The position numbers and the translations under genes are program-made. Shown here piece by piece: positions 50,633 through 54,010 of a stretch of DNA of 64,000 nt. Below the pieces are notes generated by a model. That model was given only the letters and a program-made list of their open reading frames with translations. It did not search any database and was not told the origin of the DNA. Position 1 is the first letter of the stretch. Every line of letters starts with the position of its first letter. Source of the DNA: an uncultured Chloroflexia bacterium (GTDB lineage: Bacteria; Chloroflexota; Limnocylindria; Limnocylindrales; CSP1-4); NCBI GenBank assembly GCA_963746845.1, contig CAVVCZ010000004.1, forward strand, positions 736,001 to 800,000. Reading direction: 5' to 3'.

Positions 50633-51316
50633 ATGAGCACGCAACTGCTGCACGTGATCAGTACCCCGCGCGGGCTGGCGTCGAACACGGGCCGGGTGTC
50701 GAGCGCGCTGCTGGAGGCGATCCTCGAGCAGGACGAGGATGTCGACGTCCGGACGCTCGACCTGTTCAAGACCGACCTGCCGTCGGTCGCCGGCCGGAAC
50801 ATCGAGTCCAAGTACAAGCTGATGACCGGGCAGACGCTCGACGAGGCGTCGCGCGATTCGTGGCACGAGATCGAGGCGACGATCGAGCAGTTCCTCGCGG
50901 CCGACGTCTACGTGCTGACGGTCCCGATGTGGAACCTCGGCGTCCCGTACGTGTTGAAGTACTACATCGACGCCATCGTCCAGCCTGGCTACCTCTTCCG
51001 GTACACCGAGCAGGGGACGGTCGAGGGCCTGGCGAAGGACAAGAAGATGATCTGCGTCACGTCGCGCGGCAGCGACTACTCGAGCCAGCCGATGAAGGCG
51101 TTCGACTTCGTCGAGGGCTACCTGCGGACGATCTTCGGGTTCGTCGGGATCACGGACGTGACGTTCTTCAACGTCCAGCCGATGGACATGGGGCAGGACA
51201 TCCGGAAGTCGGCCCAGCGCTCCGCGATCCGCGATGTCCGCGAATACGCCGCCAGCGGCGCCTGGCGGATCGACGCCGGCCTCGCGCTGCCCGAGCGGGA
51301 GCTGGTCGCCGTCTGA
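50633..51316 (+). CDS. azoR: FMN-dependent NADH-azoreductase
   Basis: STPRG..S, PMWNLGVP.VLKYYID, FRYTEQG.VEGL, SRGSDY, YLRTIFGFVGI. Confidence 0.88.
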   Translation: MSTQLLHVISTPRGLASNTGRVSSALLEAILEQDEDVDVRTLDLFKTDLPSVAGRNIESKYKLMTGQTLDEASRDSWHEIEATIEQFLAADVYVLTVPMWNLGVPYVLKYYIDAIVQPGYLFRYTEQGTVEGLAKDKKMICVTSRGSDYSSQPMKAFDFVEGYLRTIFGFVGITDVTFFNVQPMDMGQDIRKSAQRSAIRDVREYAASGAWRIDAGLALPERELVAV

Positions 51317-51384
51317 TCGCAACCCACCGGCAACCGAGACGTCACCTTCCGCCTCATCGAGCGCCGGGCTATGATCGGCGCTCG

Positions 51385-51474
51385 ATGATCGCTGACCCCC
51401 TGCTCCAGATCGGACGCTGTTGCTCCTGTCCCCGGCGAGTGCCGGCTCGGACAGTGGCGCGCCCGGTCATCTGA
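51385..51474 (+). CDS. Putative Cys-rich leader peptide (29 aa)
   Basis: TATGAT (51370-51375) 9 nt upstream, no SD; MIADPLLQIGRCCSCPRRVPARTVARPVI*. Confidence 0.65.
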   Translation: MIADPLLQIGRCCSCPRRVPARTVARPVI

Positions 51475-51582
51475 CCTCCGGCAGCACCCGAGCGGGTCCT
51501 CGCACCACCCCTTTCCGTGGTGAGCAGGCGCATCTGACGCCGCTCCCACGCGCGTTGCCCGCCTTCCGGAGGTCCCCACGTG
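51427..51582 (+). promoter_or_regulatory. Putative translational attenuator (alternative helices sequestering the SD)
   Basis: GACCTCCGG 51473-51481 complementary to CCGGAGGTC 51566-51574 (SD); competing TGCCGG 51440-51445/CCGGCA 51478-51483; hairpin 51427-51453. Confidence 0.6.
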
Positions 51583-52089
51583 TCCCTGCTCACGCCCCCT
51601 GCGCGCCGCATCGATCCACGCGGTCAGCGCTTCGGCGCCGGCGTCTCGGCCGTCGTCCTCATCGTCTCGCTGATCCTCGGCGAGCCCTGGCTGGCCCTGC
51701 TCGTCGGGCTCAACCTCGCGGTCTCGGCCGCGTTCGGCACGCGGCTGTTCCTGCCGGGGCGCCTGTGGCCCACCGTCCGCTCGTCGCTCCGGCTCGGGCC
51801 ACCGGCCGAGCTGGAGCATGAATACCCGCCCCGGTTCGCCCAGGCACTGGGCGCGACCGCGCTCACCCTGGCCGCCGTGTCGTTCCTGGTCGGCGCGACG
51901 ACCCTCGGTTGGATCCTCGTCGGCCTGGTCGCGGCACTGCAGACCGTCCTGGCCGTGACCGGGATCTGCATCGGCTGCCGGCTCTACTTCCTGCGCTGGT
52001 GGATCCCGGCGCTCGCCGCTCGCCTGTTCGGACGGGCGGACCGACTCGTCGGCGTCGCCGTCGTCCCGATCCGGTACCCCGAGCGGTAG
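51580..52089 (+). CDS. DUF4395 family membrane protein
   Basis: IDPRGQRFGAG, E..PPRFAQALG, AVTGICIGCRLY. Confidence 0.88.
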   Translation: MSLLTPPARRIDPRGQRFGAGVSAVVLIVSLILGEPWLALLVGLNLAVSAAFGTRLFLPGRLWPTVRSSLRLGPPAELEHEYPPRFAQALGATALTLAAVSFLVGATTLGWILVGLVAALQTVLAVTGICIGCRLYFLRWWIPALAARLFGRADRLVGVAVVPIRYPER

Positions 52090-52118
52090 CCCGCGCCGAT
52101 CTCTGAGAAGATCGGACG

Positions 52119-53009
52119 ATGACCCAGCGCGGCCTCGTCCTCTTCGCCCTGATGTCGGTCATCTGGGGCATCCCCTACCTGTTCATCCGGGTCGCGGTCG
52201 CGGAGGTCACGCCCGCGTTCCTCGTCCTCGCCCGCACGTCCCTCGCCACCGCGATCCTGCTGCCGATCGCCCTCGCCAAGGTCGACCTCCGGCCGATCCT
52301 GGGCCGATGGCGCTGGCTGGTCGCGTTCGCCCTGATCGAGATCGCCCTCCCGTGGCTGATGCTTGGCTCGGCCGAGCAGCACCTGACGAGCTCGCTCACC
52401 GGCATCCTCATCGCCGGCGTGCCGCTCGTCGGCACGGTGTTCGCCCTGCTGACAGGCGGATCGGACCGGCTCGGCCGGACGGCGTGGCTCGGGCTGTTCG
52501 TCGGCCTGGCGGGCGTCGTCGCGATCGTCGGCGCCGACCTCGGCACGAGCGACGCGCTGGCGTTCCTCCAGGTCGGGGTCGTCGTCGTCTGCTACGCGGT
52601 GGGGCCGGCCATCCTCGCCCGACGGCTCGGCGGGCTGCCGTCGCTCGGCGTGATGGCCCTGTCCCTGTTGGGCTGTGCGCTCCTCTACCTGCCGATCGGG
52701 CTGGCCCAGTGGCCGGCGACGACGCCATCGACGAACGTCGTCGTCTCGATCCTCGTGCTCGCCGTGGTCTGCACCGCGGCCGCGTTCCTCGTCTTCGCAG
52801 CGCTGATCGGTGAGATCGGCCCGGTCCGGGCGACCGTGATCACCTACATCAACCCCGCCGTGGCGGCGATCCTCGGCGTGCTCGTGCTCAACGAGACCCT
52901 GACCCCGGTCATGCTCGCCGGGTTCGTCCTCGTGATCGTCGGCTCGGTCCTCGCGACACGTCGGCCGACGGCCGCGCCGCAGCCCCGGGCCATCGCGGCC
53001 GAAGCCTAG
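52119..53009 (+). CDS. DMT/EamA transporter
   Basis: IWGIPYLFIRVAV, GPVRATVITYINPAVA, ten TM. Confidence 0.9.
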   Translation: MTQRGLVLFALMSVIWGIPYLFIRVAVAEVTPAFLVLARTSLATAILLPIALAKVDLRPILGRWRWLVAFALIEIALPWLMLGSAEQHLTSSLTGILIAGVPLVGTVFALLTGGSDRLGRTAWLGLFVGLAGVVAIVGADLGTSDALAFLQVGVVVVCYAVGPAILARRLGGLPSLGVMALSLLGCALLYLPIGLAQWPATTPSTNVVVSILVLAVVCTAAAFLVFAALIGEIGPVRATVITYINPAVAAILGVLVLNETLTPVMLAGFVLVIVGSVLATRRPTAAPQPRAIAAEA

Positions 53010-54010
53010 CCCGCGACCTCGGGGGCCTCGCCCGCGGCGGGCCCCGGCCCGGTCGCGAGTCGGACCTCATCCCGGAGGGGCTCGCCGGCGAGGAACCGGG
53101 TGATGTTCGCGGTGCAGCGCTCGACGACGCCGGCCATGCTGTTCCGGCTGCCGCCGCCGAGATGCGGCGTGACGATCACCTCGGGCACGTCGGCGAACGG
53201 GTTCGTCCCGTCCGTCTCGCGTTCCAGAACATCGAGGCCGGCCCCGGCCAGGTGGCCGGTCCGGATCGCGTCCCGAAGCGCGACCTCGTCGACGAGGCCG
53301 CCGCGCCCGCAGTTCACGAGGTACGCGCCGATCGGCATCCGCGCCAGCTCGGCCCGTCCGATCAGGTGGTGGGTCTCGGGCGTCAGCGGGACGTGCAGCG
53401 TCACGATCGTGGACACCGCGAGCAGCTCGTCCAGTGGGAGCCGCTCCGCGCCGAACCTCGCCTCGATCTCCGGCATCGGTCGGCGCGACTGGAAAAGGAG
53501 GCGCGATCCGAACGGCACGAGTCGCTCCGCGACGCTCTGGCCGATCTGGCCCATGCCGACGATCCCGACCGTCGCGTCGGCCAGGTCGTCGATCCCGCGC
53601 CGGATGATCTCGGCCGGGGCGAACCAGCCGGCCCGCGTGGCGGGTTCCGTCAAGGGCAGCCGCTTCACCAGGGCGAGCATCAGCATGACGGCGTGCTCGG
53701 CTGCACCCGTGCGGTTGACCCCGGGGTTGTAGGCCACCCGCACGCCCGCAGCCGAGGCCGCGGCCTGGTCGATCGTGTCGATCCCGACCCCGATCGCCTG
53801 GAGGAACCGCGCATTCGGCGCCGACGCCAGCGTCGCGGCGTCGATCGGACGGCGGGCGTTCACGAGGACGACGGCGTCGGCGGCCACCCGAGCGAACTCC
53901 TCGACGTCGAACGAGGTGACCGCGGCGACCTCGACACCGGGCGGGAGGCGCTCCGCGAAGCGTCCGGCGAGGTCGGCGAGGGCCGGATCGACCAGAAGGA
54001 CCTTGACCAT
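53006..54010 (-). CDS. D-isomer-specific 2-hydroxyacid dehydrogenase
   Basis: AEHA, GIVGMGQIG, LHVPLTPET, NCGRGG, DVLERE, TPHLGG. Confidence 0.92.
   Translation of the reverse strand: MVKVLLVDPALADLAGRFAERLPPGVEVAAVTSFDVEEFARVAADAVVLVNARRPIDAATLASAPNARFLQAIGVGIDTIDQAAASAAGVRVAYNPGVNRTGAAEHAVMLMLALVKRLPLTEPATRAGWFAPAEIIRRGIDDLADATVGIVGMGQIGQSVAERLVPFGSRLLFQSRRPMPEIEARFGAERLPLDELLAVSTIVTLHVPLTPETHHLIGRAELARMPIGAYLVNCGRGGLVDEVALRDAIRTGHLAGAGLDVLERETDGTNPFADVPEVIVTPHLGGGSRNSMAGVVERCTANITRFLAGEPLRDEVRLATGPGPAAGEAPEVAG

Follow-up and report, generated by a model that had tools for sequence, protein, structure and literature searches.

Just upstream of a gene for an uncharacterised membrane protein of the DUF4395 family, in DNA of an uncultured Chloroflexia bacterium (assembly GCA_963746845.1, contig CAVVCZ010000004.1), stands a 29-codon short open reading frame (sORF) with three cysteine codons in a span of four. 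Is this a chance frame, or a leader through which the ribosome reads the cysteine supply? The stretch that we analyzed, the window, is 64,000 nucleotides (nt) long, and all coordinates are positions within it. An earlier note on its letters had proposed a cysteine-sensing leader peptide, coupled to an anti-Shine-Dalgarno (anti-SD) switch, that controls a DUF4395-EamA operon. We find that the leader is conserved and very probably regulatory, and we consider it probable, with some reserve, that it works as a translational attenuator in which the ribosome senses charged tRNA-Cys, and that it controls DUF4395. The gene context with cysE and cysK, the conservation of the cysteine codons and the co-variation of two competing pairings agree with the core of the proposal, which comparative sequence analysis supports.

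The elements of the leader and of the genes behind it are given below. The two arms of hairpin P1 are called segments 1 and 2, the stop region segment 3, and the SD region segment 4; direct reading found every sequence element that the earlier note had listed where it had been reported.

51370-75, + strand: -10-like box TATGAT, read from the sequence; 9 nt separate it from the sORF start
51385..51474, + strand: leader sORF of 29 codons, with ATG start, TGA stop at 51472-74 and peptide MIADPLLQIGRCCSCPRRVPARTVARPVI
51418..51429, + strand: sensor codons TGT TGC TCC TGT (Cys-Cys-Ser-Cys), read from the sequence; the cysteines are codons 12, 13 and 15
51422..51458, + strand: hairpin P1 (segments 1 and 2), in which 51422-36 pairs with 51441-58 in the minimum free energy (MFE) fold
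51473..51503, + strand: segment 3, from the anti-SD GACCTCCGG (51473-81) through the invariant block CGGGTCCTCGC (51493-51503)
51516..51550, + strand: central spacer hairpin of the MFE fold, variable in length and sequence among relatives
51552..51574, + strand: segment 4, the SD region, with GGAGG (51568-72) inside CCGGAGGTC (51566-74)
51580..52089, + strand: DUF4395 membrane protein gene, GTG start (Pfam PF14340, E = 4.2e-29)
52119..53009, + strand: EamA-family (drug/metabolite transporter) gene (Pfam PF00892, E = 3.9e-29)

The sORF, whose motif stretch reads ...GRCCSCPRRVPA..., is the tail of a listed open reading frame (ORF), and no GGAGG-like SD stands ahead of its ATG at 51385. The anti-SD GACCTCCGG, which overlaps the TGA stop, matches the reverse complement of CCGGAGGTC letter for letter; in CCGGAGGTC the SD stands 8 nt ahead of the GTG at 51580. 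The hairpin that had been described as starting on the last Cys codon is real in the MFE fold; its core consists of CCGGC (51432-36), a GAGT loop and GCCGG (51441-45).

The leader is conserved

Judged by its conservation, the 29-codon sORF is not a chance frame. After removal of exact duplicates, we counted 96 distinct copies of the leader, nearly all in metagenome-assembled genomes (MAGs) labelled Chloroflexota or Candidatus Limnocylindrales and not Actinobacteria. This places the window in Chloroflexota, class Ca. Limnocylindria, and bears out the suspicion of a non-mycobacterial lineage. For one of the 96, L159 in a Massilia record, chance is the likely cause of the match. When 401 family genomes were searched at the DNA level, the leader turned up in many other genera; 178 genomes match, many of them only at the coding start. 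The sORF is present at all 27 fetched DUF4395 loci that were found through DNA similarity. A covariance model built on 30 leaders and run against 151 genomes at least 85% complete matched 38 of them, in 13 of 39 genera (10/10 genomes of genus g37, 9/11 of g8, and 0/8 of the other genomes of the window's own genus), and each of the 29 loci that it returned has a C-x-C sORF. Scanning one genome per species with a motif pattern gave 88 stretches, 80 of which were fetched and 76 of which carry a Chloroflexota label; all but one of these (75/76) have the sORF plus DUF4395 and/or cysE. Pattern matches in Janthinobacterium, Massilia, a Thermoanaerobaculaceae MAG and a Gammaproteobacteria MAG came without sORF and gene context and were set aside as chance. 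Within the bacterium's own genome, model R1 found the window copy alone (next matches at E of 0.28 or more), and a regular-expression scan gave one extra match, which lies in a gene and was judged chance.

What is kept among these copies is specific. The start codon alternates between ATG and GTG at one aligned position, 11-13 codons upstream of the Cys motif, and the stop alternates among TGA, TAG and TAA, likewise at one aligned position. The codons TGC-TCC-TGT, replaced in some copies by TGT-ACG-TGT or TGC-GCC-TGT, are kept in 30/30 aligned leaders and in three extra loci, so that Cys-x-Cys is invariant across the family, with synonymous TGT/TGC swaps in two of the Cys codons. The window has two consecutive Cys codons (12-13, TGT TGC), and many family copies are without such an adjacent pair. 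The conserved part of the peptide is C-[ST]-C-[PR]-R-R-x-P; toward both termini the residues change freely. The hairpin core begins 2 nt past the last Cys codon in every copy and is 97.3% paired across the 30 leaders. The invariant nucleotides comprise the C-x-C codons, this core, CTCGC about 25 nt past the stop (30/30 leaders) and CCGGAG at the SD; CCGGAG(G) is near-invariant ahead of DUF4395 in relatives.

Single-sequence statistics are not the strong argument here. Three Cys codons within at most four codons occur 399 times in the 7.1 million six-frame codons of the bacterium's own genome; about 0.0015 such clusters are expected per 29-codon frame, and the window holds seven. The folding energy of the whole leader differs from that of shuffles by z = -1.79 only. 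The cost of opening the SD in the window is 9.3 kcal/mol, vs 6.3 +/- 2.1 in shuffles, 3 of 50 of which reach or exceed it; the cost is similarly high at loci L033, L004 and L034.

Two variants of the leader deserve mention. The sORFs of the L040/L045/L053/L054 type (ending in RCSCRRRVPVQGARAVGC) carry one or two extra Cys codons immediately 5' of the stop, which might thus provide a second pause site at the start of segment 3. In L050 (G275:C15) the spacer between leader and SD holds three tandem units of about 21 nt (CGCACGTCCCCGCGATCCTT-like), and the leader extends to about 250 nt.

The leader precedes DUF4395 and cysteine biosynthesis genes

We tallied the gene content behind the 96 distinct leaders within the fetched DNA and checked 26 loci with Pfam. 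The orders found after the leader were:

DUF4395 alone within the fetched DNA: 41 copies
cysE-cysK: 22 copies
cysE: 1 copy
DUF4395-cysE-cysK: 15 copies
DUF4395-cysE: 9 copies
DUF4395-cysK: 2 copies
DUF4395-EamA: 3 copies (the window, L033 and L156)
Other: 3 copies (L004, L095 and L159)

Locus L004 was missing from the BLAST database of the tally, and DUF4395 does follow the leader there; with L004 included, 71 of the 96 leaders precede DUF4395. Operons with cysE and/or cysK follow 49 of the 96, directly as cysE(-cysK) in 23 and via DUF4395 in 26, which ties the leader to cysteine biosynthesis. In g37, for instance, a leader with about 81% identity across 87 nt (sORF MTTR...CCSCPRRVPARGTVAVAR) has two cys-like genes behind it. 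The first match at locus L049 is serine O-acetyltransferase, cysE (TIGR01172, 1e-46, under the curated cut-off), and the second is cysteine synthase A, cysK (TIGR01139, 1.5e-68, partial ORF).

These orders indicate that the conserved unit is the leader with DUF4395 and/or cysE-cysK, and that EamA is a local addition. The window copy precedes DUF4395-EamA only. Both genes of the operon that the earlier note had drawn are confirmed by Pfam, but EamA, found in 3 of 96 copies, is not a member of the conserved unit. The proposed tie to sulfur status divides in the same way: sequence context argues for it through the repeated association of DUF4395 with cysE-cysK, but not through EamA. The EamA gene starts 29 nt past DUF4395, with which it is probably co-transcribed; its best NCBIfam match, YedA, falls far under the cut-off. 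A consensus scan found no terminator-like site in 51000-53300, and none between DUF4395 and EamA. Upstream, an azoreductase-like flavodoxin-fold gene on the same strand ends at 51316, and a 2-hydroxyacid dehydrogenase gene is the convergent neighbor. Pfam annotation of the neighbors shows no sulfurtransferase adjoining DUF4395-EamA, as had been claimed.

As far as gene order can tell, the repeated linkage of DUF4395 with cysE-cysK is the most useful by-product of this analysis. The Cys130-x-Gly-Cys133 motif of DUF4395, which the earlier note had picked out as CxGC, is invariant (C130, G132, C133) in 53 homologues from leader-bearing loci. For cysE itself, tblastn against the bacterium's own genome gave nothing at 1e-8, and the best TIGR01172 match scored 41 bits vs a cut-off of 210; since this genome is 92% complete, cysE counts as not found, not as absent.

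Some loci depart from the common arrangement. A divergent leader at L095 (G147:C79; sORF ending in ERCCPCRRRVSAGMRASI) stands before a gene with an SCO4226-like (nickel-responsive protein-like) domain. At L055 (G305) the leader and cysE are separated by another ORF, of 33 codons, which has an SD of its own (CCCCGGAGG) and a TGA that overlaps the start codon of cysE (ATGA); through coupling to this intermediate ORF, the leader may there control cysE. In L070 (G226) and L160, two overlapping frames each hold part of DUF4395 (Pfam positions 1-85 and 84-127), and a hexapeptide (cysE-like) region continues in the same long frame; a frameshift or an error of assembly may explain the split.

Two competing pairings co-vary between leaders

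The unconstrained MFE fold of the window leader holds P1, the central hairpin and a long-range helix of 51473-84 with 51563-74 that buries the SD; it also pairs 51492-97 with 51557-62 and 51501-03 with 51552-54. In this free RNA, GACCUCCGG at the sORF stop pairs with the DUF4395 SD. Folds and duplex searches across the family show that the SD partner differs by clade. In 17 of 68 DUF4395 leaders, that of the window among them (-19.7 kcal/mol), the strongest duplex with the SD is formed by the stop-overlapping GACCUCCGG. In the g8 type, the partner is a CUCCGGG element adjoining the invariant block. In several cysE leaders, the Cys-codon stretch itself pairs with the SD. In L083, GCUGCUCCUG and CAGGAGCAGC are a 10-nt perfect complement, which by sequence would be exactly the design known from mycobacteria. 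A Cys tract as direct SD partner was found in only 4 of 18 cysE leaders (L083 and L052, for example), and in the window the duplex of Cys tract and SD reaches -9.6 kcal/mol against -19.7 for the stop-overlapping element.

A column-wise test of the 2:3 helix was dropped, as MAFFT shifts register between clades. Because columns cannot be aligned across clades, we tested the pairings by swapping partners among 86 distinct leaders, with segment 2 defined as the hairpin 3' arm and its flank, segment 3 as the stretch from stop to block, and segment 4 as the SD region.

2:3: cognate -17.02 vs permuted -16.08 +/- 0.24 kcal/mol; 0/200 permutations as good
3:4: cognate -16.48 vs permuted -15.36 +/- 0.26 kcal/mol; 0/200 as good
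1:3 (control): cognate no different from permuted; 41/200 as good
2:4 (control): cognate no different from permuted; 25/200 as good
1:4 (control): cognate no different from permuted; 40/200 as good
1:2: near-invariant and hence uninformative; 169/200 as good

That 2:3 and 3:4 co-vary and the controls do not is the signature of a four-segment switch. The complementarity of 2 and 3 is kept by clade-specific sequences: GCUCGG/CCGAGC in the window, GCGCGGGG/CCCCGCGC in g37 and GGGAG/CUCCC in g8. The particular 2:3 pairing first suggested, TGCCGG (51440-45) with CCGGCA (51478-83), is complementary, but constrained folds and duplex searches prefer 51441-50 with 51488-97, and the CCGGC partner that it requires is missing in two of three close relatives (L003 and L005).

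We also folded the leader with the footprint of a ribosome masked. With Cys12 or Cys13 in the A site, the MFE fold of the window drops 3:4 and pairs 51441-50 with 51488-97. Masks on the Cys codons make the SD cheaper to open, at 5.7-6.6 instead of 9.3 kcal/mol.

A proposed relay from cysteine codons to the SD

The model that follows is based on sequence anatomy, conservation, gene association, predicted folds and the co-variation of 2:3 and 3:4. Transcription would start from a promoter with its -10 box at 51370-75, and the 5' end of the mRNA would coincide with the sORF start or precede it by a few nt. A TANNNT box also stands at the aligned place upstream of the leaders of relatives, and the spacer from box to start codon is 6-7 nt in 17/26 loci found with the covariance model and in 49/75 found by pattern, which is the spacing expected for a leaderless mRNA. 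A TTGAC -35-like box lies upstream of the -10 in the L047/L048/L056-59 type. A consensus scan of the window for sigma-70 promoters gave no sites.

When cysteine is ample, the ribosome would traverse the 29 codons and depart. Pairing 1:2 (51422-36 with 51441-58, enclosing Cys codons) would then form together with 3:4 (51473-51503 with 51552-74); the latter helix would hide the DUF4395 SD, leaving DUF4395 and the downstream EamA poorly translated. When Cys-tRNA is scarce, the ribosome would instead pause at 51418-29 with its footprint over segment 1. Segment 2 (51441-55), thereby released, could pair with segment 3, best with 51488-97, and this 2:3 pairing would loosen 3:4 and expose the SD, with an output that would be translational rather than transcriptional. 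We infer the direction, ON at low cysteine, from the association with cysE-cysK. A scan of 50800-52300 against Rfam at E up to 5 gave a best match of 18.5 bits vs a gathering score of 53.7 (E = 3.2); the lack of an Rfam family and of a terminator means that neither offers an alternative mechanism.

Weighing the proposed attenuator and its rivals

Several observations weigh against the attenuator or against parts of it. The first concern its distribution and its start. A protein search found DUF4395 in 46 of 61 relatives, and at only 4 of the 30 DUF4395 loci of the window's genus (a count that takes in L016 from G010) is the leader present: these are the window and its three closest orthologues (71-75% identity). 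The window's subclade has a 9-nt spacer between -10 box and start codon, which predicts a 5' untranslated region of 1-3 nt, so a leaderless start is not assured in the window copy. A soil metatranscriptome contig of 250 nt, 94% identical to 51369-51619, spans the sORF and the DUF4395 start; it begins at 51369 and runs through the -10 box, upstream of the predicted transcription start site (TSS). If the contig derives from RNA, this speaks weakly against a leaderless start; transcript ends cannot be read from contigs, and the library may contain DNA. The sequencing runs were examined as contigs, from which no TSS, strand or level can be read; the best DNA runs share 0.24-0.30 of sampled words, and two RNA runs, which are probably duplicate filings of one data set, share 0.04. 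The contig differs from the window at five positions in N-terminal codons of the sORF, at several in the spacer (51508-57) and at one, 51576; at 51441, a synonymous substitution disrupts the pair that closes the hairpin core. Its Cys codons, anti-SD and SD are unchanged.

The other DUF4395 loci of the genus have features of their own. In two, a longer frame upstream contains two adjacent Cys codons, with the motif absent. At the rest (L006-L031; 48-59% identity), no Cys sORF is found and the promoter is different and operator-like: a promoter-like stretch about 60-120 nt upstream of DUF4395 has repeated CTAG/ACTAG words, with a palindrome-like TGCATGACTATACA...TGCATA.TCATGCA farther upstream. 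From its sequence, this upstream stretch looks like a transcription-factor operator.

The remaining points concern the folds. Sequestration of the SD does not exceed that in shuffles in 7 of 12 DUF4395 leaders (27/50 and 30/50 shuffles, for example), nor in most cysE leaders and the g8 type; the window's type does exceed it. The 3:4 swap is not significant in the cysE subset (53/200, n = 18), and the 0/200 counts for 2:3 and 3:4 are not probabilities, since they come from related sequences and from differences of about 1 kcal/mol. When the last, invariant Cys (Cys15, 51427) occupies the A site, 3:4 is retained in the MFE fold of the window. Masks placed 4-10 codons upstream lower the cost of opening the SD about equally, so the drop is not Cys-specific. 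Over 27 leaders the median cost is 7.3 kcal/mol in the free RNA vs 5.8-6.3 with the mask on the Cys codons, a modest effect of about 1-1.5 kcal/mol in an equilibrium model. Given that SD sequestration is limited to clades and that the mask effect is unspecific, the relay is the best-supported mechanism, short of demonstrated.

As a first alternative, the same Cys-pausing sensor could act on transcription, by Rho-dependent termination or polarity in the roughly 100-nt untranslated, C-rich spacer, with alternative folds that hide or expose a Rho loading site instead of the SD. Consistent with this, the spacer past the stop is C-rich and G-poor and contains the invariant block CGGGNCCTCGC, which is without a proven partner, and the many family members whose SD sequestration is not above shuffles would fit such an output; Rho dependence has also been proposed for actinobacterial cys leaders (PMC1262725). 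We nevertheless regard it as unlikely. No intrinsic terminator was found, segment 3 co-varies with the SD region, and in mycobacteria the primary event proved to be translational and polarity secondary (10.1101/834739).

A second alternative is of opposite polarity. A ribosome at the stop codon (51472-74) would cover the anti-SD (51473-81) and open the SD, so that expression would be high at ample cysteine. A mask at the stop codon brings the cost of opening the SD to 5.4-6.4 kcal/mol, a drop as large as with a mask anywhere else. E. coli EamA exports Cys/O-acetylserine, and an exporter of this type would suit such a response. However, the same leader controls cysE-cysK, which are expected to be induced by Cys shortage; EamA occurs in only 3 of 96 copies; the anti-SD lies off the stop in most family members; and a terminating ribosome dwells only briefly. 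We judge this polarity quite improbable.

That the sORF makes a functional small protein, such as a CxC peptide that binds thiols or metal and works together with DUF4395, is likewise improbable: C-[ST]-C-[PR]-R-R-x-P is conserved and column-wise analysis of 30 leaders found no compensatory double change in the hairpin core, where changes only to G.U neither prove nor disprove an RNA constraint and allow one on peptide or sequence, but the rest of the peptide varies, the non-conservative changes of V to E/A in the loop and of P to S keep pairing via G.U, the same peptide stands before unrelated first genes (DUF4395, cysE, SCO4226-like), and no NCBIfam family matches it.

A second Cys-x-Cys leader in the same genome

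Besides the window's candidate attenuator, the bacterium's own genome has a second such sORF, MTPIDERRCRCRRPA (ending ...ERRCRCRRPA), on contig C5 at about 523774-523727 (- strand; locus L187:2328-2375, - strand). Its start codon (ATG) and the TGA that ends a NifU_N gene overlap, and directly behind its TGC-AGG-TGT comes a CCGG hairpin whose loop holds the stop codon of the sORF. About 100 nt downstream begins a rhodanese+ThiF (MoeZ-like) gene, with a PALP (CysM/CysK-like) gene further on. Of 30 fetched loci, 29 keep this RCRC leader, and it has DNA matches in 133 of 201 family genomes (G141 included); its hairpin shows one compensatory change, C-G to U-A, in L207.

The two leader families, CCSC/CSC before DUF4395 and cysE-cysK, and RCRC before MoeZ...CysM, share a module: TGC-NNN-TGT and then, immediately, a CCGG hairpin. 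We offer as a tentative idea that Limnocylindria possess a 'Cys ribulon' independent of the mycobacterial one, in which at least two leader families would coordinate both cysteine-synthesis routes by a four-segment translational relay and DUF4395, often first in these operons, would be a core, so far unrecognised membrane component of the sulfur supply for making cysteine.

Comparison with known attenuators

The nearest known system is Ms5788A of M. smegmatis, a polycysteine leaderless sORF for which cysteine attenuation has been demonstrated (10.1101/834739, Canestrari et al. 2020) and whose type was foreshadowed by Shell et al. 2015 (PMC4633059); this upholds the earlier note's statement that such mycobacterial sORFs are Cys-responsive attenuators. 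Like Ms5788A and Rv0815A (the 'Cys ribulon'), as portrayed there, the window has a short SD-less sORF with Cys codons beside a -10 box, about 100 nt before a gene for a small hydrophobic protein whose SD is buried in a leader helix, and the design repeats at several cysteine-related operons of one genome. Ms5788 itself is described there just as a small (159 aa) hydrophobic protein (10.1101/834739). As with the Ms5788A type, our family sits before cysteine or sulfur genes (49/96). It differs in its phylum, Chloroflexota, in the absence of an adjacent sulfurtransferase at the window locus, and in having two to three Cys codons with a Ser between, vs a C-terminal run of eight in the mycobacterial leader. 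Unlike those of Ms5788A, the window's Cys codons are not the anti-SD, and a relay through the hairpin is therefore needed. The window sORF and three relatives matched no NCBIfam family at E up to 10, and by sequence they do not belong to the Ms5788A type.

Other Actinobacteria provide a second comparison. Their cys leaders are Cys-codon sORFs that, like ours, come without a terminator and stand before cys/cbs operons; unlike ours, they consist of Cys runs near the stop, in Mycobacterium, P. acnes and B. longum, and the mechanism was left open with Rho suggested (PMC1262725, Seliverstov et al. 2005); these leaders, too, foreshadowed the principle shown for Ms5788A. The trp, his and leu attenuators share a leader peptide rich in the regulatory amino acid and alternative RNA folds. 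Unlike them, our leader has no terminator hairpin with a U-run (0 found), and its last segment holds the SD.

In our full-text literature search, neither cysteine leader peptides of Chloroflexi nor leaderless mRNAs of Limnocylindria were the subject of any paper returned, and just two papers mention DUF4395, neither of them in its title or abstract. Operon and regulatory evidence points to a place for this uncharacterised protein, with its invariant CxGC, in cysteine or sulfur supply, and its function becomes testable.

In its logic the proposed relay is closest to ermC/cat attenuation, where 1:2 and 3:4 form at rest, a stall frees segment 2, segment 2 takes segment 3, and the SD in segment 4 is released. 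The ground state is matched here by the MFE fold and the 3:4 swap, and the competing 2:3 pairing by the swap and the constrained fold. Unlike in ermC/cat, the proposed trigger is a hungry codon (uncharged tRNA-Cys), not a drug with nascent-peptide arrest, and the regulated genes are metabolic or membrane genes. Ribosome-read cysteine attenuators had been demonstrated in mycobacteria only and predicted in a few other Actinobacteria; what is new is the same logic in uncultured soil bacteria of a different phylum, where we counted about 100 copies, with a Cys-x-Cys sensor (with or without a third Cys) and a wiring that is apparently a relay, not direct SD occlusion. These natural variants bear on how few hungry codons suffice and on how pausing becomes SD exposure.

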